Assembly: GCA_951406725.2 (NCBI GenBank)
Contig: OX597818.1
Span: forward strand, 91,140,001 to 91,204,000
Direction of reading: 5' to 3'
DNA from: Octopus vulgaris
Lineage: Eukaryota
Length of the DNA: 64,000 bases
Below the pieces are notes generated by a model. The model searched no databases. It had not been told where the DNA came from and was given only the letters and a program-made list of their open reading frames with translations. Shown one piece after another: positions 17,359 to 61,033 of the stretch. How positions within the stretch are numbered: the first letter of the stretch is position 1; each line of letters opens with the position of its first letter. The position numbers and the translations under genes are program-made.

Positions 17359-17418
<60 letters not shown>

Positions 17419-17515
17419 ATCGAAACATGAAAACACCAAGAGAAAATACAACAACGCGAGGACGTGGAACCAGTATAGTATTATGTGATGCTCAGGAAAG
17501 AAGGAAAGAAGAAGC

Positions 17516-17550
17516 GTTTAACGTTTCGAGCGGAGCTCTTCGTCAGAAAC
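17516..17550 (-). ncRNA. Minimal PLE-type hammerhead inside a ~220-bp element (17415-17632) between (TA)n tracts; related degenerate copy at 4927-4962(-)
   Basis: rc gttt CTGACGA agagc-tcc-gctc GAAACGTT aaac. Confidence 0.65.
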
Positions 17551-17629
17551 ATAGGAAAAGGAAAGATCCAATGAAGGAAATATAGAGGGAAAAAATCGGC
17601 AACAGTACACACGCGGTCACATTTTGAAA

Positions 17630-17681
<52 letters not shown>

Positions 17682-29737: not shown

Positions 29738-30398
29738 TAAAAAATTCTAGCGGCGAGTTTGCCCGACTTCAGTTCTTCGATTTTTGCTGTAGCGAGTAAA
29801 TTATTTGTGGAAATTGACGATTTAATAGTCTGTTATCATCAGCATATTGGCTTTGAATTAATTTTCTTTAGCCCTTACTTATAAGTTGTTTATAATTTTA
29901 ACCGTAAAGGTATTTTAATATGCTGCCACATTTGTTGATGGAATTTTTTTCTGTAGAGAAAAAAACTTCATACTATATTAGTAGTAGACTTATTAATAAT
30001 CGCTATAGGGTCTGGTAACCCCTATAACCTGTAGTGGGGAACGGTAAACACGTTGTACTGAGGCTGACCAAAGAATTTTCATTTTTAGATATAACTGGGG
30101 TACTTAAATGTACTCATGTTTTTTGCTTCGGCTTTTTCCATGGGCGCATGTAGGTATCTTATTTATATTCTTTCGTAAGCTCTACTGAGGAGGAATAACT
30201 CTTTTATGAGATTAATTCCGAAATTGATTCAATATAGAGATAACGAATTTTAAAAAAATTCTAACGGCCAGCTTGCCCGACTTCAGTTCTTCGATTTTTG
30301 CTGTAGCGAGTAAATTATATGCGGAAATTGACGATTTAATAGTCTGCTATCAGCATATTGGCTTTGAATTAAATTTCTTTAGCTCTTACTTATAAGTT
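29738..30398 (+). mobile_element. Non-coding HHR-containing element with ~150-bp terminal direct repeats (retrozyme-like or partial tandem pLTR)
   Basis: Direct repeats 29738-29887 and 30251-30398 (period ~514 bp), HHR at 30172-30247, TA-rich microsatellite flanks. Confidence 0.7.
30172..30247 (+). ncRNA. Type I hammerhead ribozyme (canonical core)
   Basis: ttcgt-aag-ctcta CTGAGGA ggaat..attcc GAAA ttgattcaa TA tagag-ata-acgaa; predicted cleavage after A30234 (AUA triplet). Confidence 0.8.
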
Positions 30399-32133: not shown

Positions 32134-32266
32134 ATGCCTTCCTACACTCTCCACTACTTCAACCACCGTGGCCGTGCTGAGATCTGCCGTATGCTGTTTG
32201 CAGCTGCTGGTGTCCAGTACAATGATCGCAGGATCGAGTCTTCGGAATGGAACAACATGAGGAGCA
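32134..32266 (+). CDS. S-crystallin coding exon 1 ([16 protein letters not shown]...EWNNMRS, phase 1)
   Basis: accATGc start context; GST N-terminal YFNxRGRAE motif; donor A|gtaagt at 32267. Confidence 0.96.
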
Positions 32267-33595
32267 GTAAGTAACAATATATTAATTATACTTAACACAA
32301 AGAATGTGAGCTCGCCGAATTATTAGAGCTGGCTCTTTACGATTTCAATACAAATACAGCCCAGATAACGTTGGCCCTTTAATCCTTTTGAAACCGATAA
32401 AATAAATTTCTAGTCAAAGCGAAAGTATTAACTAAGGCTCTTCCTTGAAAATTACTGAGTTTGTTAAGAATTTGAAACAATTATGCTTTATATACTCAGA
32501 CTTGCAAATTACAAAATAGAAACTGTAGATTCTTTGTAACTGATTTGGTCTGTACAGAATTAAGAGAAAACATCCGCAATCGTCATTCTGCTTTAACACC
32601 CATCCAGGTCGTCCGGGACGAGAATCTTTTGATTCTTTTCCTTGGCTTTTGAATTGCACTATAATTCTATTAACAGCAGCAATAGGAATTTGAAGATTTT
32701 CGGCAATTTCTCGCTGGTTAAGACCAGCCTCAGATTGCCCAGCAATATGACCTCTTTGAAAATCTGAGAGATGTGCTGAATTTTTTTTTTTTTTTGCGTG
32801 GCATGGTTACTCTTCGCAAATGTTTAATATAATGGCACCTGGAATGAAAAAGAATAATTACGTTGTAAATTCTACACCGCTGAAAACATATTAAGACGCT
32901 TAGATTAGAAATTTTGAAAATTAAAGGTGTCAATTTACTTCCTGCATGTCTGTGTATACTATCTAGTTCCATCCCATTATGTTGTTAGGGCAAATCCTAT
33001 TACACTCAATAGAATTTCAGTTGACTCCTGAGATTATTTAGCCATCTTTGCTTAATTCTACCCAAACTAGAAAACATTAATTTGTCATTTCAAATGTAAC
33101 TGACAACATTACCTTTATAAATATAAAACATATTTGTTGCTTTTATAACAATACTGCATGAGTTATGGAAAACGTAGACATAAGAAATAATAACGATATG
33201 TATTTAGTTTCTGTACGAAATTACACCTGAAGTCCAGCCGGGAATCTCTTTTTAGACTGCTTCGGATGAAGTTTTGGCCTGATAATTTTGTTGTAGCAAT
33301 CGGTATATTAAATGTAACGAAACACAAATAATCGACATTAAATTCCAAAATCATATTTTACTATGCATAATGTCGACGATGGTGAACAAGAAAGCAGATA
33401 TAAATAGTGAAGTAATTTACATGAAGTCACCTACATTTCCTGTTTTCCTTCATAAACATTTATAACAAATATGGGAACAAGTGAATAAAATATTCAAGAA
33501 TCTTTTATTTCTTGTGAAAGAGTTTCGTTGTATTCTGCGACCTGGTCATGTACACTGTTCCTCGGTATTATTAAAATTACAAATAAATTATTTGA

Positions 33596-33639
<44 letters not shown>

Positions 33640-33641
<2 letters not shown>

Positions 33642-35388
33642 ATTTCAGCTCAGAGCTGCGGCCATGCTGGTGCACTGCCGTTTTGTGCTACACTGTTATT
33701 ACTAAGAGCCTCCTCTGATATGTGGCACTTGGTGAAGAATGGAGTTTGATATAGCTACCCTCATTTGCACCTCTTGCCGTGATGTAGGTTCATTTGGGAC
33801 TCTCGACAGGAAGAAGTCCAGCTTTGATTTAAAAACCGCTACATCTACTTTGTGCAAGTTCCTCAGACTCTTTGGGAGAATATTAAAAAGCTGTGGGCCC
33901 TTGAAACCCAGGCTGTTGCAGTAGCTTGTCCTGAAGCGTGATGGCATTGCTGGGATCTTTGGCACTATGCAGTGTCGTCCCGTTCTAGCATTGGTGTAGC
34001 TTTCAATGCCAAAATTTAGCACAATTCCTACTAGAATCTTCCAGATATATATTACTGCATACCTCTCCTGTCTTCTCTCCAGGGAGTAGAGTCTTAGCTG
34101 TTTCAACCTTTCCCAGTAGCTGAGCTGTTGCAAAGAGATGATCTTCTTTGTGAATCTTCTCTGGATTGCTTCAAGGTCCGCTGTTAATTTCACACTGGTG
34201 GGTGACCATAGCTGTGAGCAGTAATCCAGGCGACTGAGGACGAATGTCCGCCAGAGGACCATCATGGTTTCCTTATCTCTAGTTCTGAATGTGCTTAGGA
34301 TCCAGCTAGCCAGTCGTCTGCACTTTGTCGCCATCATGGTAATGTGCACTTGGAAAGAGGTATCATCACTCATGTCGATACCGAGACTTAGGCTCTGGGA
34401 TTGAAATTCCCTGTGGGCCGGAGTACCCTGTAAGTTCAATATTCATTTTTGGATGCTGGTAGCGCAGGGCCTAGAATTTTTCAGTATTAAACTGCATATT
34501 ATTATCCTCAGCCCATCTGTAGATTGAGTCCAACTCATGCTGCAGGTTTGCAACATCGCTGGGGTTCTGTATTTTCTGCGAGACTTTCGTATCATCTGCA
34601 TAGCTTGCCAGAGTGGCTATCCTGGCATTTGAGGGCATATCTGAGAGGGCCACTATATAAAGCAGTGTTCCGAAGACAGTGCCCTGTGGAACACCGCTCA
34701 CTATTTGTGTGTTCATAGAGGTGGCTCCATTAACCACGACTGCCTGACTTCTATCTTTCAGGAAGTCATGTAACCACACTCCAAGTTTTCCAGCTATGCC
34801 GAGGTCACGCAGTTTGTGGCATATCATACCATGATCCACCTTGTCAAAAGCTTTTGCAAAATCAAGGTATATTACGTCCACTTTTGACTTGTTGAGTAAC
34901 TGCCTCAACACCCAGTCATAATGTTGTAAGAGCTGGGTAAGGCAGCTCGTACCTGGTCGGAAACCATGCTGATTATCACTCAGCAAGTTATTTTCCTGAA
35001 GGAATGCGATTAATTTTCCTCTGACTATCCGTTGCATGCCTTTGCTGATGTGTGAAGTCAGAGAGATAGGCCTATAGTTTTTGGCATCTGATCTACTTCT
35101 CCCTTTATGTATTGGGCATATTATTCCCCCCTTCAGCTTGCTTGGCAGTTTTGCCATTTGTAAGAAAGCTCTGGAAGAAAATCTTGAGGGGTTTTGCCAG
35201 GGCATGCTTACACGCTTTGAGGAGGATTGCTGGGAAACCACCAGGACCGGCAGTTAAGTTTGTGTCCACTTCATCTGTGGCGAGTAGTATATATTCTTCC
35301 CTAATGTCAATGTATTCCATTGTAACTGCCTCGCTAGTTATAGGTGAGGCGGCAAAGATGTCCACTGGTTCGTTCACTTGTCTGTGCA
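33640..35388 (-). mobile_element. 5'-truncated CR1 LINE, antisense in S-crystallin intron 1
   Basis: ORFs 34471..35241 and 33702..34439: NYRPISLTS, QHGFRPG, YLDFAKAFDKVDH, GVPQGT, YADDTK, SRLDYCSQLWSP, LYSLERR; intact 3' tail; (TA)n flanks. Confidence 0.92.
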
Positions 35389-36161
35389 TATATATATATA
35401 TATAAACATATATATATATATATACATATATATATATGTATGTATATATGTGTGTATGTATGCATGCATATGCATATATAACAGTTTGATTCAGACAGCT
35501 CGGTACTCTGGTTTCAAGCGTGTTGCTAGTCTTCAGCCATTGGGGTCTGAATTAGAGTCCGATTGAAGAAAGTCAATGTCTTCTACTGGACGCTACCCTG
35601 CGATTGGTCGGAAAAGGTCACGCGGTATAGCAGTTCGATGTTGATATTTCAGTGAATACAATTTGGTTGGAAAATACCGCATGGTGAACAGGAAATCGAC
35701 GGCGTGGTGGACAAGAAATCTCAAGGGACATAGTATACAGCGCCACTTTTACACCGTCCGATAGCATTACTAAGCACTATACTGGGCATGACGGCCAATA
35801 TCTTCAAGGAAGGTATACACAGAGCAAATCGATCCCAGGACTTATCCTTTGTAAGCCTAGTACTTGTTCTATTGGTCTCTTTTGCCGAACAGCTACGTTA
35901 CGGGTACGTAAACACACCAGAATCGGTTTCCAAGCGATGATGGGGGGACAGACAGACAGGCAGACAGATACACACACACACACACACACACTTCTTTCAG
36001 TTTCCTTCTACCAAATCCACTCACACAGCATTGGTCGGGTCGAAGCTGCAGCAGAAGACACCTGCCCAAGTTGTAATGCAGTGGAACTGATCCCGGTACC
36101 ATGTGGTTGGTAAGGAAGCTTCTTACCACACGGCCACTCCTGAGCCTAAAGCATAGAAAGA

Positions 36162-36280
36162 CATTTACAGCACTGAGGTTTCTCAAGCGGTCACCCATCT
36201 AAGTACTCACTAGGCTCAACGTTGCTTAACTTCGCTAACCGGACTAGAACCGGTGTTTTCAACGTAATATGGCCATGAGC
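36162..36280 (-). pseudogene. Full-length dispersed 5S rRNA pseudogene
   Basis: rc gctcatggccatattacgttgaaaacaccggttctagtccggttagcgaagttaagcaacgttgagcctagtgagtacttagatgggtgaccgcttgagaaacctcagtgctgtaaatg; ~119 nt, recognisable A- and C-box segments, many substitutions. Confidence 0.88.
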
Positions 36281-37285
36281 CTAATAACTTCAAATTTAGG
36301 TACGTGGACATCAGTTTTGAGGAAAGGGGCAAAGTTTTCGATTGGTACTTTACTTTATGGACCCCAAGCAGATGAAAATCAAAGTTGGCGGGGGTTGAAT
36401 TCCCGTGTAAAGAAGCGAAAAAAATGACCAACTGATTATTTCCGACGCTCAAACGATTATATCTGTCCCCCGTCCTAATATAAATTCTATTAATATAGAG
36501 TTGAAACAAATCAACTATAGACTCAAGAATAAAATGGGATCATTTTGATTTACATTTTTGTTCTGGAAGGAGAAAACCTGTCAGCTTAGAAGTCATTTGC
36601 TGACCTCTAGATTGATTGGCCTTGAACCTCCATCATAGAGGCACCCTTGACTAAGTTGTCTTCACATTCCAGGGATGTCCGTCAAGCCCACAAGATGAAT
36701 CATCTGTATTCAGTCAATGTACCTTCAATGTATTTTCATGAATATTTGTCATGAAAGACATATGAGCATGCATCACTATGCTCCTAATTCTATGGGAACT
36801 GGACTAATGCGAACACGTGATTAATTGAACTTATATATCCTGAAAATGGTTGGCAATGAAATTGGAAAACTTGTTTATCTTTCAATGACTGAAACCGCTC
36901 GCAATGCTAATATCCAAAATCTAGTCTTCTTTCTCCAAACCACTGTTCGATTAATGATTATAAGAACACATTTTTAAAAGCTGAGTGTCGTTCAACAGAT
37001 ACTGTTATCACAACGCATGTCTAAATGCGAATCGTTGTTGATAAAAAATTAAATATTTTCACCAAATAGAGGTTATTTGCTCACAGTAAGACAAAATTGT
37101 GCAACCTTAGTTTGGTTTCGCATTCTTAGGAATAAACCAAAGTCGTTCAGTCATTATCTACATGGATGCGTACGTACGTTTGAGGCATTGACGTTTAAAT
37201 CTACCAGGAGCATTTGCATTCTGAAAGGTTTGTGATCAAAAAGTTGGCATTGGTTCTAAAAAGTATCCTCTTTATTTTGTTCCAG

Positions 37286-37381
37286 AGATGCCATGTTCCA
37301 TGATGCCAATGCTGGAGATCGACAACAGACATCAAATACCCCAGAGTATGGCTATTGCTAGGTACCTAGCCAGAGAATTTG
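37286..37381 (+). CDS. S-crystallin coding exon 2 ([33 protein letters not shown])
   Basis: tttattttgttccag acceptor; [16 protein letters not shown] motif; donor G|gtaagt. Confidence 0.96.
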
Positions 37382-37606
37382 GTAAGTACATACGAAGTAT
37401 ATATTTGATTTTAAATAAATATTGAATATGTCATAATAAACAGCACGGGAACAGCTGTAACTAGAAATAGTAAGTTATATATCTTTCAATATCATGTTCT
37501 TACCCACTTCTCAAAAATGATACTAATATTACAGCGTAGAAAATATATATTCAGATAATATATGATGTAAGATAATTTATTTGAAAATTATATAAATGTA
37601 CATTTA

Positions 37607-37654
<48 letters not shown>

Positions 37655-37838
37655 TGTGTGTGTGCATTTGTATTCGTGTGTGTATGTGTGGGTGTACGTG
37701 TGTGCGTTGTTTGAAGGACATGTGGCTAATAAGCTTTGGTTTCGGAACAGCCACCATGAAAGGCTTATTTGTGTTGTATTAATGTTTAAAAGTGAGTTTG
37801 AAATAGAATATAGGGTTCATATATATATATACATACAT

Positions 37839-37923
<85 letters not shown>

Positions 37924-39139
37924 AACCACATGGCTACACCAGAAGTTTAAATACCATAATAGTAATAATAGTACTTAGATTAAGCACCCAAAATATTTTC
38001 TATGAATCAGAGACCAATAAATGAGCGTGCATTCCAAAATGTATTGGTTGTTTCTGCTATATCCTGCTCACCTAACAGAAAACAAATCTATTCCGGTGCA
38101 TTATATTAAAAAAACTTATCAAAATATTTTAAAATGGAGTTTAAAGACTTTCTGGTGTTAAATAGAAATGTATACAACGGAAAATGTTTAAGAAATTATT
38201 TCTTTATTCATTTAGTTAAGCGAAGCTTTTGAAAACTTGAATTTAAGATTATACTCTCTATATTACCCATTTTCAAAATACAATTTATTTATATCTCTCG
38301 GTGCAAATCTCTATTCGGAATAAAATTATCAAATGTAGCTTACCGTAATAATGCAAGTAGTGAACGAATTTGAATGAAATTTGTTTGCTCTCTTTTTAGC
38401 AAATTAAGCAACCAGTTGAGTGTCTTTTGTAGGCTCAAATCAAAGCAATTTTCTTTTTTTTTTCTTTTTGAATAGACAAAGTGCCACTCTAAATAAACGC
38501 CGAACAAAATTTCAATGCCTGTCAAGGCAGTCATGTTTGAAATCACAGGATTTTGACGCAGACTTTAATTATATTTTGTGACAGTATACTGATTGGAAGC
38601 CACTCTAACAAATAGACGTGTCGATAATGTAAATTCCGCATGCCGATTACTTGCAGTCATAAATACAGTACATGATGTTATACCTAGTGGTAGTTAAGAA
38701 AATAAATTGAAATTGCTTATATGAGAGTTAATAGAAAGCAGTTCGTTATATAAGCCGTAGCGGAAAGATATCCTTTGTTGAATAAAAATTCTTAATAGCA
38801 ATATTAGACTTTAAATATTAGAAACAATTAATATTTATAATGTTAGACAGAAAAAATATATTAGTCACTTAATATAGCAGTTATGGAGCAGAATCAGTTA
38901 TTTATAACATCATAGAATTTACTTTCTATCAGTGTCTATTTTGATTTTACTTTTTACCAGTTCGTTTTCAAACCCATCGTCTCAAAGTAACATTTTTAAA
39001 ATATTTGTACAGATGCATACATACATATGATCATATATATATATATGTCTGTGTGTGTATTTATGTATGTATGTATGTATGTATGTATGTATGTATGTAT
39101 GTATGTATGTATGTATGTATGTATGTATATGTATGTATG

Positions 39140-39173
<34 letters not shown>

Positions 39174-39177
39174 TATG

Positions 39178-39227
<50 letters not shown>

Positions 39228-39875
39228 ATGTGTGTGTATGTGTGATGCGTATGTATGTGTGTGTGTATGTATGTGTATATAAAGGCTTGTGGACAAGCGG
39301 TTAGTATGTTGCAATCATGATCTTAACTATGTGGTTTCGACTCCCAGACTGGTATTTAATTTTCTTTTGAGCAAAACACTTCATTTCATGCCTCTCCAAC
39401 CCACTTAACCGTAATCTTGGGAAGGGGCTTGCTGGCCTGTGTACCCAGCCATTTGTTACGGTATCAATCGAAAGGTAAAACAATGCGAAGAAGCGCACTG
39501 TGACCAGTGGTGTATAACAATGTTGGATATTCTGGTCGATAAATTGATATTTATATATACATACATACATGCATGCATACACGCGAAGCACACACACACA
39601 CATATATGCATGTGTGTGTGTGTTTGTGTGTGTATGTGTGGTGTGTGTGTATGTGTATGAAATGTACTACTATAAAATGCTAGTCATACCAATATTAATA
39701 TCCGGTTTTACCACATTTCCAAAGATACATTTGTCACTAAATAGACTTCCTTTTAGTTTTCTTAAACTTGACAATTGAAATTTAAGACTTCATCGATTGA
39801 ATTCCACAAAACTTGAGTTCTACATATATTTATGTATCATACTACAAATTGATATCTCCGTTTCATTTCGCGTAG

Positions 39876-39991
39876 GTTTCCATGGTAAGAGTAATATTGA
39901 GATGGCCAGAATCGACTTCATTTCAGACTGTTTCTATGATATTCTGGATGACTATATGAGGGTGTACCAAGATGGTAACTGTAGAATGATG
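39876..39991 (+). CDS. S-crystallin coding exon 3 ([39 protein letters not shown])
   Basis: tttcatttcgcgtag acceptor; lies inside ORF 39797..40126; donor ATG|gtatgt. Confidence 0.96.
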
Positions 39992-40199
39992 GTATGTATG
40001 CTTTATTTATCAGTTGATATTAGAAACAAAAACAAAGAGAAAGATTACTATATAATATTATTTATTCTATTATATACTCCAGTGCAACCTGTTCCGTGGT
40101 CGGGTCGTCGGCGACTAAACTGGTAACCCCACTAGACCTGCTTGGTGAAGTGGGTGCTTGTTGAACACCTTGCGGGACAAACATAAGAGCCGTTAAAGG

Positions 40200-40905
40200 G
40201 TTGAGGAACTGCAACTATCAGTTCACAAATACAGTACAATCTACATTTACAGGACCCAAAGTCACTACAATCTCAGAGTCACAGGCAGTGAAAGATATAA
40301 GCAAGATGCCAACAAAGGGCAGACAACTGGCAGGATAGATACTGAGGTCCTTCAAGACAAGAGACCAAGAAACTATGTTGACATTGTGAAGAACCTTTGT
40401 TCTCAACCGCCTGGACTAATGCTCCCAGTTATCGTCACCACATAGTGCAAAACTAACAGCGGAGCTTGAAGCAGTTCAACGCCATTACACTAAAAAGATT
40501 GAAGCAGTACAGCGGATGAGCTACAGAGATAGGCTGAGAAAACTGCAGCTTTACTCCCTGGAGCGAAGGCGTGAGAAATATGTAATAATATACGTATAGA
40601 AAATCTTAGAAGGGCTAGTAACTAACTTTGGTATTGTGTGTTATACAAATGCCAGAACTGGCCGCCCTTATATTGTGCCAAAGGTACCATCCACCCCATC
40701 TAAATTCAGGACCAGATATTGCAGTAGTCCAGGGCAAAAACCTACAACTATTCAATGCGCTGCCACAAAACAGAAATTTGCATTAGGTGGAAGTAGATGC
40801 CTTCAAAAAGGAACTTAGATATCCTCCTCTCCACAATACTGGGTGAACCAACATGAGGTAAAGACGAGGGCAGCGGAATCAAACTCCATTATAAACCAAC
40901 TGTGC
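40200..40905 (+). mobile_element. Older degenerate CR1 fragment in S-crystallin intron 3
   Basis: LWRTFVLNRLD, LQLYSLERRREKY, YTNARTGR; homologous to the 33702..34439 ORF. Confidence 0.8.
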
Positions 40906-41069
40906 GAAAACCAACCAACAGCTGCGACGAAGGCACATACAGGAGTAGTGATGTGAAACACCTAAACTGAGGAAGTCAGAAAGACCAGTAAGACCACGGC
41001 CGCATGGCTGAAACGAGTAAAAGAATAAAAGACTATATATATTATATATGCCTTATATATGTATATATG

Positions 41070-41127
<58 letters not shown>

Positions 41128-41579
41128 TACATATATACATATACATATATATAAACATACAAAATATATATATATATCTGTGTACGTGTGTCCTTGTTTC
41201 TACCCCCACCATCGTCTGACAACCGATGATGCTGTGTTTACGTCTCCGCAACTTAGTAGTTTGCCAAAACACTCCGATAGAATAAGTACTAGGCTTACAA
41301 AGAATAAATCATGGGGTCTATTTCTTCGACTAAAGAGGGTGCTCCAGCATGTCTTCAGTCACATGCCCGAAATAAGTAAAACAATACAAAACTATGCCAT
41401 TTCAATACCAAGCAACGCCGGGTATCTATGGTAGTATAATCCCTTGTTGATCAAATGCCAAGTATCAGAGGTGGATTCACATATTAGTGTAGCTCATTCA
41501 GCGATGGTGCCCCAGCATGGCAGCGGCCTTCGGGCTAAAACATTTTTAAGGATTTAAGGATTTTATATATATATATATA

Positions 41580-41630
<51 letters not shown>

Positions 41631-41660
41631 TACCAGATAATAAGTATATATATATGTATA

Positions 41661-41785
<125 letters not shown>

Positions 41786-42927
41786 TCTGGCTATCCGCAA
41801 TATTTTAAAAGTGAGAAAATAGGAATTTTTATGGAGTTGTAATAATCTAATATGCAGGAAGAAATATTTACCCTTGTTATTCCATGGCTTCGCTTCCTGA
41901 CTAGATGAAAATGGTTTATTCCTCAAAGCTGCATTGCAAGTTTTCCATTAGTATTATATATTTAGAACACACGAATGCACTTTAGTGTGTGCGATTTCGT
42001 TTGATCCATAGAATACTCCGAAACGGACAGTTACGTGGATTTGTATTTACGTCTGAAAATGAGAACGTTTCTGCCATATAGCGAGTCGTAGACACATTAC
42101 CATCTGAGCGCTCGTTTTTCCGTCTTCCAGTGATATAGTTATTCGAAATAGGATTCACTTAAGCCTACTGGCATATTCAAGTGTGAAAGAATCCAAAGTG
42201 AAATACCTCCGATTCATATGAGCAACTTAATACTAAGTAAATTTATACCTTAACAAGATGGTGTACTAGACAAGGTTTTCGAGGAAATGCTAGTATCATA
42301 TCTTGTGCTTCCTTCCACAGAACTTGACCCATAGATTAATAAAACGACGATCAATAGACCGATCGATAGTCCATAACCAGGAGCTACCACTAAACTCTCA
42401 TTATCGACAGAATACCTAACTATAGCTAGTGTAGTCTGCCATGGTGTAAATATGTACAAGATTGTCATTATTGTTTTAACGTTTTCTATTTTCTTTATTT
42501 CTTTGTGTTTTCTCGTATCTGATGGAACACACATCACTGCGACTTTATTATATATATTTAATGACAGTTCAGTTTTGTAAAAACGTAGAATACAAGAAGA
42601 CACTGAAAAGAGAAGAAAATCAACAACTGAAAACATGACAAGATATGCGTTAGGAAAAAAAATAGAAGAAATGAAATTTCATAAAACGAAAAGCAAAATG
42701 AGTTCGCATCCAAGGACAAAAAGAATAGAACACCAAACGATATATTGTCAAGTATGTGACAATACATACATACAAATTTTTATGGATAACACCATACAAA
42801 AATAAATGTATATAAGGACACAGGAAAAATGTGTCAAAGCCATCAGGAGGCGTCGATGCTTCCTAGGGCTAAACAGCGGTGGTGTACCCCCTACTGTCAC
42901 GTTCGTGTTAAATTGACAGTATACAAC

Positions 42928-43000
<73 letters not shown>

Positions 43001-43055
43001 TGATATTATATTACGGCGTGCTGCGATGCTTTTTTAACCAAAAAAAAAAACGTGG

Positions 43056-43111
<56 letters not shown>

Positions 43112-43220
43112 TTATGTAGACATGTCTGTATATATGTATGTATGTATGTATGTATATACATAAACACACACATATGCATTTTACTGCGGATATTCGATCA
43201 CATTTTTGTTTTTATTATAG

Positions 43221-43250
43221 TTTCAGAGATCTGGAGACAGAAATGGTTCA
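43221..43250 (+). CDS. S-crystallin coding exon 4, 30-nt loop micro-exon (FQRSGDRNGS)
   Basis: tttttgtttttattatag acceptor, TCA|gtaagt donor, phase 0-0; supplies the FQRS..SS linker of octopus S-crystallins and gives the expected 215 aa. Confidence 0.9.
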
Positions 43251-43611
43251 GTAAGTTACACTTTTCTTTCATTCTTTCTGTCTTTCTTTCGTTCTTCCTT
43301 CCTTCCCGGTTTCTTTCTTAGTAGTTAATAAAAATCTGTATCGAAACGATAAAATCACTAAAGAGAGTAACATGACTACAGATTTGAATATCTTATGAAA
43401 TGCAGGGTTGCAAAGTTTATTTCAGCTTTCTACGACCGGTAATAAAATACCAGCAATTACCATTAACACACTAGTACTTTGCACTATGAATTTTACTCTT
43501 AAATATGTAGAGGTTTAATTAAGACAATAATTGAATAACATATTATTATAATCCCATTACAATTAATCATAAATATGACGTAAATATGACATGCATCATT
43601 ACATATTACAG

Positions 43612-43719
43612 TCGGAAAAACGTATGAGATATCAAGAGACTCTGCGAAGAATATTACCATTTATGGAACGCACCTTGGAAATGTACAAGAGTGGTAGCCA
43701 ATTCTTTATGGGAGACCAG
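43612..43719 (+). CDS. S-crystallin coding exon 5 ([36 protein letters not shown])
   Basis: ttacag acceptor, CAG|gtatga donor, [13 protein letters not shown] crystallin motif. Confidence 0.95.
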
Positions 43720-44954
43720 GTATGAATTTATCTTTCTTCTATTCTATTATATGTAAAATACGATACAATCTAATAACTAATACGATCACACCATGAGTCC
43801 TACTCTAAGTAATGTCAGCTATATCAGCAAAAAGTTTGCATTTACGTATAACTAACTTTTGGGAGACGTTGTATGATTTTGTAATTCTCATATTTTTCGT
43901 TATATTATTTACAACATACCACGTGGTAGTATGTCTTTATCCTACCTGCTGTAATACTTGAGAGAAACTACGCTTACGATAGTGTATCTTTTCAATACTG
44001 AGATATTTGCCCTTAATCCGGTCATTGTACTACTGTCTCACTGATTAACGCAGTTGGTATTACATCCCAAAGCAATATCAATGCGTTTCCCTCAAATATG
44101 CATGTATGTATGAAAGTATGTGTGCATGCATGTATGTATTCATAATTCTGTTAGTTCTTGTATTTGTTTATCTCTACTTTCGTTTTTGCAGTATAATTCT
44201 CGTACCCTTAAGCACATCTTTATTTTATAGTCTATTATCCTCATGGACAAATAGCTGTGTATGTGAAGAAGCAGATAAATAGCAAAGCTGTTACCATGCG
44301 TTATATTTCATTTATGTTTATTTGGAAATATGAATGTTGCTGAGCTTCATATCCGCCAAGCTTACAATGGACGTTTTTAAAAGAAACTTTTTACTTATTC
44401 ATATCCACCTACATGAAAGCTTCCTACGAAGTTATCGCATTTAAGTGTTAGGCAAATTCTCTCACTGATACACGTTGCGTAAACTGAACTGCACACTATT
44501 TTCTCTTTCTCTCTGCCATACTGCTTTTACGTGAGCCCTGTGAGACATATTCTTCTTACAATACACAATCGTATTCAATTGAAATTATATTTAATTCTTC
44601 TTAAATGTCCACACGCGGGCTAGGCGTCCCGCACAAAACATGTATTGAAATAAAACATATTCAGCTTAAAACAGTATCTTTGCTCATTTACACCATTTAT
44701 ATACTGCCACGTTTTTACCAGATCAATCTATAATTTGTAATTGACAGATGAACTGAATTAATATTCATTTTACATCTACTTTACTAACCGTAACAATTGT
44801 GCTTAGATCCTGTAGGTTCCACTGAACATTTCTTTTAAAAAAGCTTTTACTGTCATGAAACTATGCGGACTCATGAAACAGAATTAGAAATAAATGATGA
44901 ATTCAAAGCTAATCATTCATTATTCATTTATGCTTGCCGTTTTTCTTTTTCCAG

Positions 44955-45119
44955 ATGACCATGGCTGATATGATGTGTTATTGTGCCCTTGAGAACCCAC
45001 TAATGGAAGATCCCTCTATCCTTAGTAGTTATCCCAAAATGCAGGCTCTTAGAAATCGCGTGATGAGCCATCTTAAAATGTCTCCCTATCTGAAGAAACG
45101 TTCCAGCACCGAATTCTAA
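44955..45119 (+). CDS. S-crystallin coding exon 6 ([17 protein letters not shown]...KKRSSTEF*)
   Basis: ttttctttttccag acceptor; GST C-terminal TMAD motif; TAA at 45117-45119; matches ORF 44934..45119. Confidence 0.96.
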
Positions 45120-54335: not shown

Positions 54336-54480
54336 AAAAGCAATTAAGATTCAAGTCAATTCTAATGAATTTACTTGAATGCGGTACTTAACTTAGATGC
54401 ACCAGAAAACTATATGGTGTTAACCATACAGTAATGTGGGGTGATTATAAACGAGAAAGAAGCAACAAGAATGAATTAGT

Positions 54481-54571
54481 TTTTAGTACAATTGTTTCAT
54501 ACAAAGACAGGCTTTATTAAAAGTTGCAAATATTGCAGCAGATAAAAGTGTCCCGTACTCATCAGCTAAAA
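54481..54571 (-). ncRNA. PLE-type hammerhead ribozyme with long stem II (intact copy; G8A variant at 56906-56996 on +)
   Basis: rc ttttag CTGATGA gtacggg..tttgtat GAAA caattg TA ctaaaa. Confidence 0.75.
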
Positions 54572-55858
54572 CACATATGAGTTCTCCAAACATCTTAGTG
54601 GGTGAGGCTACACTCGTGAAGTATTGGAGATAATTTCATTAAAAGCAGATTTAGGTTGTAAAGAGACTTCCGAAGTTCTTTAATGATGATGCACAGTCTT
54701 ATCACAGGTTTTTAAAAAAGCTTATTAGCTTCACAGAGAAGGTGAATTAATCCGTAGTGTAGATGTAAATTTCCAGAGATATGAGGAGGAATTTCATACT
54801 CACAGACGATGAATTTATCCATGGTTAATCCACAATGAGGTGGGTATAATTTCATGCTATATGATAAGGTATTTGTCACATTACTGTTCTCTTCACAAGA
54901 CTGCTATGTTATGACTTCTAAAGGCTGAAGGAATTTTTGTGGAGCAAAGAAAAGAAAAGAAAGGAAAGAGAAGAAAAGAGACAAGGAAAAGGAAAAAAAG
55001 AAAAAGAAGAAAGAAAAAGGAAAAGAAAAAAGAAAAAAGGGGAGAAGAAAAGAAAAAAGAAAAAAGAAAAAAGGGAAAGAAGGGAGAAAAGAAAAAACGC
55101 CCACATAGAGTATACTGTAACAACTGAGAGGGAAAGGGGTCGCAGGTGACCCACTACACAGAAAAATTTGTAGACGGCTTGGCTGGCTTCGAATTTGCAG
55201 GAATCTAAGAACTATAAGGAGAACATTATTTTTGACCAGTAAACAGCTATTTATTGCCAACCTGACGTAGCTGAAAGCAGATATGAGAATCTAAAGAGAT
55301 AACAAGTTTAGGGATAGAGGGGTCAAAGGCTATCATCAAAAGGAAATACATTAAGAGAAAAAAATAAGTGCAATCCTAACAAGAGGTCATTTAAATTTAT
55401 TTATTTATTTATTACTGTTACTGTCTTAAATTGTTGCCGTTACTATCTATACATTGACAGACTACAGGTCAAAACTTAGAAGTTTGTTTACAAGGTGTGA
55501 GGGAATTGCCTATTATACTGAAATTTCTCATACTACTTTCAAGGGAGTAGCATTACTTATTTAATTTTGTAATAGAATTATGAAGTCTTAGTAACTTATT
55601 TTATTAAAGTTGTGTTACCTAAATTAGATTAAATTAAAAATTTAAAATTAAATTTAAAATTAAATAAAACTTCATTTAAGCAACGTACAAGTACTATTTG
55701 TTTCCTTGTGCTCAAAATCAAGTGCAGTTATAAAGAAAGAGATAACTGTAGTGTGAGAGCTCGCAGTTATCTACTTAAAAAATTAAAGTTATGCTATACT
55801 AGTAAAAAACAAGCTATATCTATCTATCTATCTTGTTACGATTATTCTATACGGTTAT

Positions 55859-56794
55859 TCATTTAAAATATTTTAGAGTCTTCAATTTTGCGTGGACACA
55901 AACTTGACCTAATTCAATATGGTTATTTAACAAACCCTTATTTTTTCTATGCTTCAGAATTTCATACGTTTCCATGGAGCAGAGTTGGCAACCAAACCTG
56001 TTATTTTTATACGGCATTGCTCTTCTAACTATTTCCCGATTAAGGTTATAATTCCTATTATTATTTTTGAGTTCCCAGATCTTATTTGAAAGTGTGATGG
56101 TACCAGCTTTATGACGTAATTTAAAAGATGAGACGTGGTTTCTAACTCTATCTCTAAAATTTATCGTACAACCAATGTAAAAAAATTTATTATTCTCAGT
56201 AGATATGGTACATTTATAGATTACGTTATTTACCCCGCATAGACCAGGTGCCGGGCATTTTGACTTAATTCTACACTTACACGCAGGAGGAACAACTTCA
56301 GATGTTGGATTATTCATGGATAGATGTCTTATGTTCCTGTTATTTTGATTATCATGAGTATAATTATCTTTATTATTATTATTATTTTTATAGTTGGTGC
56401 TGTTATCTAAAGCATTGTTATTATTTATTGATCCTTCTGCTCCATCCTTTAGGTCTAAAGTCCTACCATGATTATTTACATTATTGGTATTGTTACTATT
56501 ATTGCTAGTATTTGTATCTGAATGTATATTGTTGTTATAGATATCACTGATATTTTCATTCTCTGTATTTTCTCTGTTAGCCTTACTTCTATTATTAACA
56601 TTATTACTTCTATTAATATCAATATTATTATTACTCCTATTAATGTTAATATTATTATTAGTCATTCTGTGGTTACTGATTCCACCCATGTTTTGATAGT
56701 TACTATTGTTGCGTTTATTGTTGGTATTATTATAATTCTCTGTGAAGCTAATAAGCTTTTTTAAAAAACCTGTGATAAGACTGTGCATCATCAT
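55859..56794 (-). CDS. PLE-derived ORF: Asn-rich linker plus CxCx5Cx5C and GIY-YIG endonuclease domain (no RT)
   Basis: CKCRIKSKCPAPGLC..VIYKC..YIGCT..FRDRVRNHVSSF..LSNKIWELK..PY..CQLCSMETYEI..LLN..CVH; uninterrupted 311 codons; the start codons come from the inverted repeat. Confidence 0.7.
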   Translation of the reverse strand: MMMHSLITGFLKKLISFTENYNNTNNKRNNSNYQNMGGISNHRMTNNNININRSNNNIDINRSNNVNNRSKANRENTENENISDIYNNNIHSDTNTSNNSNNTNNVNNHGRTLDLKDGAEGSINNNNALDNSTNYKNNNNNKDNYTHDNQNNRNIRHLSMNNPTSEVVPPACKCRIKSKCPAPGLCGVNNVIYKCTISTENNKFFYIGCTINFRDRVRNHVSSFKLRHKAGTITLSNKIWELKNNNRNYNLNREIVRRAMPYKNNRFGCQLCSMETYEILKHRKNKGLLNNHIELGQVCVHAKLKTLKYFK

Positions 56795-57024
56795 TAAAGA
56801 ACTTCGGAAGTCTCTTTACAACCTAAATCTGCTTTTAATGAAATTATCTCCAATACTTCATGAGTGTAGCCTCACCCACTAAGATGTTTGGAGAACTCAT
56901 ATGTGTTTTAGCTGATAAGTACGGGACACTTTTATCTGCTGTAATATTTGCAACTTTTAATAAAGCCTGTCTTTGTATGAAACAATTGTACTAAAAACTA
57001 ATCCATTCTTGTTGCTTCTTTCTC

Positions 57025-57097
<73 letters not shown>

Positions 57098-57281
57098 AAT
57101 AAGAAAATGGAGAAACAAATTCATCTCGTTCACCAACTTACAGATATTGCGATTTTACATTATTTATTAATTTTACAAATGAGAACATCAAAATCAAACA
57201 AAACATTATATAAATCAATAGGTAATATAATAATAAAAATAATACAAATACATATTTAATAGTCATATTATAAATAAATAA

Positions 57282-57338
<57 letters not shown>

Positions 57339-57341
<3 letters not shown>

Positions 57342-57576
57342 CAGCTATTATGCTAAAATGCCGTATGTCCAAAGATGACCAAGTGCGTTTTTTATCAATA
57401 CTTATTTTTGCTTATAATAGCCGGTTCTTATGGTCAAACTATCGTAGCTCTAGCTGCTTCAGATGCCAAGATATCAAAATAGTGTAACAGTTTTGCTATA
57501 GAATGGTGAAACTATTTTTTCTTTTTCTGAAAAAGCAACGTTTTGGACTTACGACATTTTTGCATAATAGCTACTG
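57339..57576. mobile_element. MITE with ~35-bp imperfect TIRs in TA context
   Basis: Left gcagctattatgctaaaatgccgtatgtccaaa vs right (rc) gtagctattatgcaaaaatgtcgtaagtccaaa. Confidence 0.75.
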
Positions 57577-57688
57577 TATATATATATATATAATATCAGG
57601 GAGTATAATTTTCTCTAAGTTAGATATATATTAATTTTATAAATGAGAACATCAAAATCAGACAAAACATTTTCTATTTTCTATTTTC

Positions 57689-57734
57689 TCTAGACTGATG
57701 ATGGGCAAGACCTAGAAACATGCATGTCTCTAGA
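57689..57734 (+). ncRNA. Type I hammerhead ribozyme (canonical core, palindromic stem III)
   Basis: tctaga CTGATGA tggg-caaga-ccta GAAA catgcatg TC tctaga; GUC triplet, predicted cleavage after C57728. Confidence 0.85.
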
Positions 57735-57999
57735 TGCAGGCCTAGCTGTTGGGGGTGTTTGTCTCCCCTTCGTAAATATATAAGGACACAGGAAATGTAC
57801 CAAGGCCGACAGGAAGCGTCGATGCTTCCTAGGGCTAAACAGCGGTGGTGTAATTCCCTTACAGGATTGTCACTTTAAGTTGACAGAACACAACAACTCT
57901 TACGCTCCACCACCGTACATATCTCTATGAGATATTTAGAAATTTAATATTTCTGAAATATATATTATATATATATGTGTGTGTGTGTGTGGGGGTGTG

Positions 58000-59785
58000 T
58001 ATCTTTTAGATTCAAACATACAGCTAATAGTACGTCCTTAACTAGCAATATTTGGGAACCGAAAGTAAGGAATACCGGATTTACCCTTAAATGGGATATA
58101 ATTCTGACGACGCTGCCCTATAGAAATAGTCTAAATGGGTGTGAGCTGCAGTCTATGGAAACTTATAGGGACAAGAACAACTTGATCAGTTATAGGTTAG
58201 ACCTAAGCCCATCATGCATGCATAGCGTCACCCGTATATTTAAGCATTTTCGAAACTAACGATTATAGATACCATACTTGAAATTTGATGGTGAAAATTA
58301 ATTTTGGTGTCATATCCGTTTTAAACTTACCCTCTAGTATTAAATAAAATAAAACCATGCGATATTATGCTATATGGTGAATTACATGTTATATGCCGTG
58401 TGTCATGGTATGTGCTGTGCTATATATAACACTATCCCCTGTCTAGTTAGTCTGACTACATCATATATCCCCTAGAAACTATAAAATCATATGTAAAATA
58501 ACACTCTCTTCGGTCTGAATATATTTAACTGTGCACACTACTTCCTTACCAACTATAACCCACTCTTTCAGGTTACCTTTATCGCTCGCCTACATCTAAT
58601 TTTATCCCCTGCCTCTTTATATGTAGTTTATATGCATTTCTTATTATTTTCTATAAATTCTTATTTTATTTTCCTATTTTGATATCCTTACTTATTAACC
58701 TATTATCCCTTATAAATCGTTATTTTTCTTTTTCTTAAATAGACATTTTTCAATTACTTAAGTCTATGCGAGCTATTACTACTATATCCATATAAACGTA
58801 TAAATATTTGTGTATATGTATATATGCATATATGCACATATATAAATATGTATGTATTCATATGCACTTTTGCATTTTTCTGATTCATGGCTTAAAATTA
58901 ATAGAGAGCATATATATCGTTCTTGTTATTCCATAAGGAAATGCCTTGACAGACTTTATCGAAACCACATTATAAGTAATTAATTAAGTACAAGAATCAA
59001 TATTAAACTGATTCTATGTAACCTTACTCTTTAATGTTTATAATTGATATATATACACCTTTTACCTAATTTGGCTATGATATCATTTTTGAAATTCTTA
59101 AATTTTATTTTTATACAACATAACAATATTGTTTAAAAACAATCATCCACGGTGCGCCTAAATAAAATTTATGTATTAACATCTTAGGTTTCTTAGCATC
59201 GTGCCCCTTTAACTGGTAGTTAACATCATGATTTAAAGTCTACCTCTACCCTGCGTCTTTTTATAGACAGTTACTTACATCCAACTCACTACTCCAAATG
59301 TCTTATTTCCCCTTGGGGAAAAGGGATACATATGATAATATCTATAATATCTTGTCCCTTATTCAAAATAGATACAATCTTCTAATCTTAGATTTAGTTG
59401 TAGATAAAGAAATAACTGAATTAGAACTGAATTACAGTCCCTCCTCTATGACTCCTCTGTGTTCCATGCGATTCTCAGAAGTTGTAGTCTATTCCTAGCT
59501 ACATGAATTTCTTCCATCTTCTTGTTCTATTAAAAAATATAGAGAAAAATTATATTAATGTGTTCTATTTGCTAAAATTCCATTTATTTATGTGTGCAGC
59601 AGAAGATAGCACTACATTGCATTGTTCAACTAAAAGGAACCGCTTTAAACGGTCATACTGGCATCACTACTTGGTATCCTGTTGTTTATTTTGATTTTAT
59701 TCATATAACTTCGGGCTGTGCGGTTAATATCGAACTGACTTGGTGCGTCAACTTAAGTACCAAATTCAACTGAGTCTCAATTATT
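58000..59785 (+). mobile_element. Degenerate Naiad-type PLE 3' fragment (GIY-YIG end plus long 3' region); extent approximate
   Basis: ORF 57975..58259 SFRFKHTANSTSLTSNIWEPK..LKWDII..PYRN..CELQSMETY parallels the 55859 ORF C-terminus. Confidence 0.6.
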
Positions 59786-59789
59786 TCTC

Positions 59790-59902
<113 letters not shown>

Positions 59903-60520
59903 ATTCTTCTATTCTATTACTTGTTTCAATCGTTTGACTGCGGCCATGCTGGTGCACCGCTTTGAAGGATTTTAGTGGAAGGAATCGACCGCAGGACTTA
60001 TTCTTTGTAAGCCTAGTGTTTATTCAACCATCACTTGGGCTGAATCGCTAAGTTACAGGGAAGTAAACACACCGGTAGCAGCGACTCGCTGTTGCAATTG
60101 TCAGACGCCACAGAGTCGCTTCTACATCAGTCGGGACAACAAATATCATTGTGATACCTGTCGGTGTCTATGGGTTTTCAGCTCTGAACTGTGGAATCAC
60201 ATCCCGCCTCATCGCTCAGAACATACTTCGTCATCGTAGGACACCGAATGACTGCTACTAGCTACACACACACACCTACGCACACGCACACATACACACA
60301 CAAACACTCACGCACAAACACACACATACACACACACATATATATAATTCAGATTCAGTTGAATTAGGTACTTAAGTTGAAGCACCAAGTCAGTCCGGTA
60401 TTATCCGCTCAGCTCGAAGTAAAGTGAATAAAATCAAAATAATCAACAGGGTATCAAGAAGTGATGCATTACGACCGTTTTAAGCGAGTCCATTTAATGG
60501 AACAATGCAATCATTACATA

Positions 60521-60561
<41 letters not shown>

Positions 60562-61033
60562 GTGTGTGTGTGTACAAACATATGTATACGGTGTACATAC
60601 ATATATATATATATATATATGAAAGTTGGGGTATGTGTATATACATATAGTTACATATATATATATATATATGTTTGGCGCGCTGTTAGTAGGGGCATTT
60701 GAATTATAACGTCGGATGTAATCAATTGAACCACATGTGTATTTATCGTTATGGTAAAATATGGCGTGTGATTTGAGTGGATTTCATCCAGATAGTTTTG
60801 GCTGAGGAGCTACAAGTGGGTTTTTGTAAGTAAAATTACATTTAATTCATTAATAGCGAAACAATTGTCCCAAAATAATCTGTATTTTTGTTATTTTTTA
60901 TTTGCCCTGTTCGTGTGAGCTAACAATCGTACTGACTTTCATGTGAAACATGTATTTTTGTGGTTGAAACCTTTTGGATTTTCTAGTGCTAGAATGAGCC
61001 ACATAGTGACCATTCTCTTATATTTATTTTTAT

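Follow-up and report, generated by a model that had tools for sequence, protein, structure and literature searches.

A high-copy octopus repeat with a type I hammerhead motif and a likely Penelope-like affiliation

In this study we describe a short, very abundant repeat of Octopus vulgaris in which a type I hammerhead motif is joined to a hairpin-rich body. The copy at 57689 probably belongs to a Penelope-like retroelement, either as its terminal part of pseudo-LTR type or as a non-autonomous derivative; membership of that group is likely rather than shown, because a partner ORF was not seen. The window, as we call the whole 64-kb stretch of DNA analysed here, is animal DNA rich in microsatellites. 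Its + strand carries an S-crystallin gene, one exon of which matches S-crystallin OctvuS4, a protein of solved structure, with an E value of 3.9e-20. The evidence on the family comes from one search of public runs and from the contigs of four runs (2358, 167, 2431 and 1147 contigs) aligned to 57600-57950 at 80% likeness. A viral or microbial origin is unsupported, exact-pattern scans having found 0 loci in metagenome contigs, viral contigs and prokaryote genomes. The features are collected in Table 1.

Table 1. Features of the repeat, its second copy and the host gene (window coordinates)
Feature	Position	Strand	Basis or remark
S-crystallin gene	32143-45116	+	six coding exons at ~32143, 37286, 39876, 43221, 43612, 44955
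Second copy, 5'-truncated, without ribozyme or tail	42803..42933	+	ends at (TA)n tract, 42933
Type I hammerhead motif	57689..57734	+	sequence, strict descriptor; predicted cut between 57728 and 57729
Stem I UCUAGA	57689-57694 / 57729-57734	+	6 bp, palindromic
Catalytic core CUGAUGA	57695-57701	+	sequence
Stem II	57702-57705 / 57711-57714	+	4 bp, 5-nt loop, opens with U10.1-A11.1
GAAA core segment	57715-57718	+	sequence
Stem III palindrome ACAUGCAUGU	57718-57727	+	10 nt
C17	57728	+	GUC at 57726-57728
Competing helix CUAGA/UCUAG	57712-57716 with 57729-57733 (57712..57733)	+	pair probabilities, BLAST self-inverted match
G5/C4-type hairpin	57751..57769	+	fold; similar hairpin in loose ends of the family preceding 57778 and 57780
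Conserved structured body	57777..57902	+	common to the 42809 copy; variant table, depth
Body hairpins	57785-57801, 57804-57836 (contains 57811-57830 palindrome), 57856-57865, 57866-57887	+	fold
3' extension ('tail')	57903..57959	+	closing-stem partner strand and two hairpins; (TA)n tract at 57958

The hammerhead motif and its predicted folds

The motif at 57689-57734 carries the type I core (C3-U4-G5-A6-N7-G8-A9, G12-A13-A14, A15.1-U16.1, H17), with three helices of 6, 4 and 3-4 bp paired beside the core and helix I open. A strict hammerhead descriptor gave three matches in the window (57695+, 30185+ and 17546-) and none in any of 100 block-shuffled windows. This bears out the hammerhead proposed in the initial annotation, and the palindromic nature that it gave to stem I (UCUAGA) and stem III is directly visible in the sequence. 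Its wording of a perfect and canonical hammerhead goes too far: positions 10.1-11.1 are occupied by U-A (U57702-A57714), followed by G-U, the consensus G10.1-C11.1, termed highly conserved in PMC4209133, is absent, and Rfam at E values up to 10 returned three matches for 57600-57950 with no hammerhead, twister or HDV-like ribozyme among them. The U57702-A57714 pair shows no common variant among the contigs of the four runs. A natural U-U at 10.1-11.1 has been reported in PMC3088659, where earlier work is cited according to which U-U supports cleavage, and U-U variants are also found in PMC7229834. For a possible extension of helix I with a loop 1-loop 2 contact, the consensus of the upstream loose ends paired with the downstream strand at shuffle level (229-513 of 1000 as good), and the upstream loose-end motif has 0 window matches at up to 3 mismatches.

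Several short patterns were noted around the motif. CTAG occurs five times in 151 nt (57685-57835), where 0.27 would be expected from the window average, two of the five being forced by stem I. A CTGACGA...GAAA core without valid stems lies at 58104-58225, and at ~58207 there is a 9-nt reverse-complement match to 57698-57706 of the ribozyme, which is probably due to chance.

The fold predictions point to a ribozyme that might hold itself in check. The competing helix, stacked on stem III in the predicted fold, has pair probabilities of 0.84-0.98 in three longer contexts; once formed, it would bury the catalytic GA and take the place of stems I and II. The stem III hairpin is computed at +1.7 kcal/mol versus -13.3 for the two-molecule self-duplex, which fits the dimer model suggested early on for the palindromic stem III; the link between such palindromes and dimers is stated in PMC4209133 and PMC3088659. 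The double hammerhead is computed at -25.7 versus -4.5 per monomer fold, which speaks for the dimer idea, and the locked dimer at -29.3, which speaks against activity. The inactive fold of the 57689 hammerhead is predicted to be favoured by 3.5-6.9 kcal/mol as a monomer and by 3.6 as a dimer. As the active folds of the two other window hammerheads likewise lie 2.7-3.9 kcal/mol above the minimum, the lock at 57689 is a moderate prediction. On these models a ribozyme monomer would cut weakly or not at all, and any cutting would take place as a double hammerhead via the 10-bp stem III. Only one of nine predicted dimers cleaved in vitro in the set reported in bioRxiv 10.64898/2026.07.22.740005.

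The repeat body and its family

The body recurs in the window: 57777-57900 aligns with 42809-42933 at 79.5% over 127 columns (E 7e-24, same strand), and the second copy has no hammerhead, just as the initial annotation had described. It sits in sense orientation between S-crystallin coding exons 3 (~39876-39991) and 4 (~43221-43245), so that its assignment to crystallin intron 3 is correct when coding exons are counted. The repeat was at first given the span 57670..57920, which has to be revised: it starts at ~57688 and extends to at least 57950, and we infer the 3' end of the tail beyond that position, giving a length of at least 271 nt (57689 to about 57959).

The description of the element as highly structured applies to parts of it. 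The shared body beats shuffles in both copies (57777-57925, z -2.44; 42800-42935, z -2.82), and so does the tail (57905-57960, z -3.28), whereas no fold excess is seen for 57729-57800 (z +1.39) or for 57680-57925 as a whole (z -0.10). The palindrome at 57811-57830, the stem 57842-57850/57908-57916 and the TGTCA/TGACA hairpin, all named at the outset, are all part of the minimum-energy fold. There are 27 variable sites in 57744-57906, nine of them within the predicted stems of the window copy. At five of these the majority change restores or strengthens a pair (57799, 57800, 57863, 57867, 57887), and at two it keeps the pair (57804, 57815); minority changes break a pair at the remaining two (57757, 57844). 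The variant table holds no two-sided compensatory change at the nine stem sites. Since the helices were defined from the window copy and extended along their register, the variants show a worn copy of a better-paired family and not covariation. A common change at 57820 falls into the loop of the 57811-57830 palindrome, and thus the hairpin is kept and perfect symmetry lost.

Both window copies end in (TA)n at the 3' side (42933, 57958), about 55 nt apart; 2.95% of non-tract positions have a (TA)n tract within the next 15 nt. The tail has 0.27-0.31 of the depth of the body in all four runs, depth not being copy number. No target-site duplication is visible at the window copies, and no terminal inverted repeats bounding the element were found in the window.

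Far from the rare two-copy repeat that the first description implied, the contigs of the four runs reveal a very high-copy family. Part of the stretch is present in 20 of the 24 listed runs (9 studies, 4 organisms). There are no RNA runs among the matching runs listed, and an RNA nature of run X6 would be a guess. Summed depth is 52-95 on the 5' flank 57600-57623 (X1, X5) versus 0.6-1.3 million at 57816-57851, and in X6 and X7 the flank has zero cover at 57600-57623 and 57672-57683 (contigs, 80% likeness). Depth climbs from the bin 57684-57695, reaches its maximum at 57816-57851 and remains high up to 57950. Summed contig depth does not equal copy number, as short-unitig overlap inflates it up to about 30-fold, and we therefore infer a copy number of hundreds to about ten thousand.

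The ribozyme takes a smaller share of this depth, 0.07-0.36 of the body around the cut site (57720-57743) and 0.03-0.11 in the catalytic core, ratios that are distorted by fragmentation and by the window copy's own divergence at 57864-57910. A minority of family copies likely keeps the ribozyme and most are likely without it, again with depth not standing for copy number. An X1 contig covers 57641-57743 with zero differences, and hence the junction is real. Among the 32 pieces listed (6128 lie beyond these), five from three runs cover the catalytic core in full and extend to 57798 or further, with 14-21 letters that differ; two of them probably represent a single orthologous locus. In these diverged contigs the ribozyme is joined to the body, which places the hammerhead within the terminal repeat and argues that the two move together at other loci. 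Across 57600-57743 the variants listed for the four runs include no substitution that reaches 8% of depth. Thirteen X1 contigs have a common upstream sequence (agreement 0.7) that is absent from the window copy, suggesting that the latter is truncated at stem I. In two contig checks, three long ribozyme-bearing contigs with 430-564 nt upstream had no second match listed, and 0 contigs of the four runs fitted two places. The joints listed comprise three inverted and three go-back kinds in seven contigs, isolated cases in a set of about 6,100. A joint at 57728 has depth 3; in X5, a contig that has reached 57847 resumes at 57730, next to the cut site.

The element has a GC content of 43% and is present at the 57689 locus as a single unit, with no tandem unit. 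Its 58-aa frame had 0 matches in 1.84 billion proteins, and a C-to-T change of the family at 57840 introduces a stop into this frame; a 29-codon frame runs through the ribozyme. For 34 of the 43 frames of at least 50 aa listed for 55000-61000 (the other nine lying at the outer edges of that interval), Pfam gave 0 matches and no reverse transcriptase or GIY-YIG partner was seen at the locus. Stops, indels and 0 protein matches led us to reject a Penelope ORF with its start inside the ribozyme or beyond it. A TATA-box considered at 57777-57784 was dropped, family loose ends varying there.

Other elements share the window. At 29739-30397 there is another ribozyme element. Its unit of 514 nt is continued by a partial repeat (30253-30397, 92.6%), and a type I hammerhead occupies 30180-30239, immediately ahead of the junction; the element looks like a partial tandem or a retrozyme. 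We found no sequence in common between it and the 57689 family, in agreement with the proposal that the latter is a separate non-coding hammerhead family. A third hammerhead of minimal Penelope type (bulged A, G-C at 10.1-11.1, no real stem III) is found on the minus strand at 17405-17632 (core 17546), in a unit of roughly 230 nt between two (TA)n tracts. Crystallin coding intron 1 harbours a 5S rRNA-like sequence (36162-36280, minus; 75 bits, above the Rfam gathering score). Just upstream of the 57689 repeat, an inverted pair (57318-57373 / 57542-57596, 87.5%, (TA)n-flanked) resembles a small TA-targeting DNA transposon. A 296-nt inverted repeat (54446-54740 / 56736-57031, 98%) around about 2 kb possibly represents young DNA transposon ends, and of a 47-nt direct repeat (57161-57207 / 57625-57671) the second copy is multi-copy in all four runs.

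Proposed mechanism and competing readings

A Penelope-like origin might work as follows. The repeat RNA would be transcribed, and its hairpin-rich 3' body would be bound by an autonomous Penelope-like reverse transcriptase-endonuclease. Nicked (TA)n tracts would prime the cDNA, with two alternative start points ~55 nt apart, and an early stop of copying would be usual, by which most copies, such as that at 42809, would lose the ribozyme. The 57689 copy retains 40 nt upstream of the cut site, which suggests that its template was uncut or re-ligated RNA; uncleaved RNA was found to be the main substrate for PAc (PMC11167929). Should the ribozyme cut, it would do so in tandem transcripts, in the form of a double hammerhead. 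Penelope-like elements account for 6.83% of the O. vulgaris genome (PMC13282606). In PMC4209133, PMC8557442 and PMC11167929 such elements are described with 5' truncation, an optional tail, (TA)n ends, inversions and a hammerhead with palindromic stem III, and partial tandems and inversions are known in Penelope-like elements (PMC8557442). Signs consistent with truncation, a tail, (TA)n ends and inversions in the 57689 family lead us to propose this mechanism. Some features depart from the type. Penelope hammerheads have a bulged base before stem II and G10.1-C11.1 (PMC4209133), neither of which is present at 57689, and the tail of ~55 nt exceeds the published length of 30-40 nt (PMC11167929, PMC8557442).

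The copy at 57689 could also be a monomer fragment, now dispersed, of a non-LTR retrozyme that is organised in tandem; arrays elsewhere would be transcribed, dimer-cut into units of ~300-400 nt, circularised and re-inserted. We regard this as possible but doubtful, and it overlaps with the preferred reading because a derivation of these retrozymes from Penelope pseudo-LTRs has been proposed. With a 6-bp helix I, a 4-bp helix II and a palindromic helix III, the motif corresponds to the 'canonical' metazoan type I plan (PMC4209133), the GC content lies under 50%, there is no coding capacity, and such elements are known in a mussel (PMC7229834). The X5 contig returning from 57847 to a point beside the cut site would suit it as well, as would the reach of the family further upstream. 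Yet the locus has no tandem unit, the three long ribozyme contigs have no second match listed, no contig fits two places, and the ribozyme-less body takes most of the depth. The contig test against tandem arrays is weak, since unitigs break in arrays.

An unlikely reading, to which we give still less weight, makes the ribozyme a dead passenger: the body would spread as a LINE-dependent SINE-like or DNA-level element, and one old subfamily would have captured a non-cutting hammerhead. The minority of depth in the ribozyme region, U10.1-A11.1, the predicted locked fold and the missing Rfam score all agree with this. However, the core is without common substitution in four runs versus 27 variable sites in the body, Rfam gave no tRNA-like head in 57600-57950, and terminal inverted repeats do not bound the element. 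An origin of the motif by chance, or by the joining of unrelated pieces during assembly, is largely refuted and scarcely deserves credence. The hammerhead fold is indeed not the predicted minimum, but none of 100 shuffled windows matches the descriptor, the X1 contig is free of differences across the junction and diverged contigs connect core and body. At the speculative end, and very improbable in our view, thousands of short elements mobilised by Penelope might form a family present throughout octopuses, with a self-locking hammerhead whose repeated CUAG palindromes would hold the ribozyme inactive as long as two copies have not paired at stem III. Under this reading, copy number or inter-transcript pairing would determine cleavage, which would yield circular RNAs and would allow intronic copies in sense orientation to cut the host pre-mRNAs of lens and neural genes.

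Significance and comparison with known systems

Our search of the literature on octopus hammerheads, cephalopod ribozymes and four sequence motifs gave no description of the 57689 family, and in the PMC8557442 supplement covered by this search the four motifs do not occur. Repbase, Dfam or the consensus library of PMC13282606 may already contain the family. If the Penelope-like reading is true, an abundant and probably unlabelled octopus repeat would be classed as Penelope-related, and hammerhead-bearing short retroelements would be extended to cephalopods. Two further unrelated hammerhead families within the same 64 kb suggest that such ribozymes are common in the O. vulgaris genome. The role of hammerheads in the transposition of Penelope-like elements is termed unclear in PMC8557442, and the U-A closing pair together with the predicted lock might offer a simple handle on whether the ribozyme serves transposition or is a passenger. 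What is known of hammerheads themselves is left unchanged by the 57689 family.

Among known systems, the hammerheads of Penelope pseudo-LTRs (Cervera and De la Pena 2014, PMC4209133) share the type I core and a small palindromic helix III suited to dimers. They are also mostly single dispersed motifs, ascribed to truncated elements. The 57689 hammerhead differs from them: it lacks the bulged base before stem II, has U-A where they have G10.1-C11.1, carries a longer palindrome of 10 nt, varies little in sequence and was seen with no ORF beside it. Animal non-LTR retrozymes, in the accounts of PMC7229834 and bioRxiv 10.64898/2026.07.22.740005, are likewise non-coding, small and below 50% GC, with a helix I of 6 bp and a helix II of 4 bp; dispersed monomers are known, and Penelope pseudo-LTRs are their proposed origin. 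In contrast to them, the 57689 locus is without a tandem unit, most family copies appear ribozyme-less and the family is known here from contigs.

The Poseidon element PAc of Anolis (PMC11167929) has its ribozyme upstream of two alternative 3' ends (a 'tail'), as here, and resembles our element further in AT-rich targets and in insertion from uncleaved RNA, the template at 57689 probably having been uncut or re-ligated. The ORF of PAc starts inside the ribozyme, whereas the ATGs of the 57689 core reach a stop within a few codons. Compared with the repeat-type dimeric hammerheads of Aedes and Nematostella (PMC3088659), the sequence is unrelated and the extra CUAGA is predicted to lock both monomer and dimer, but the plan is alike, with stem and loop III forming a palindrome that gives a 10-bp dimer helix.
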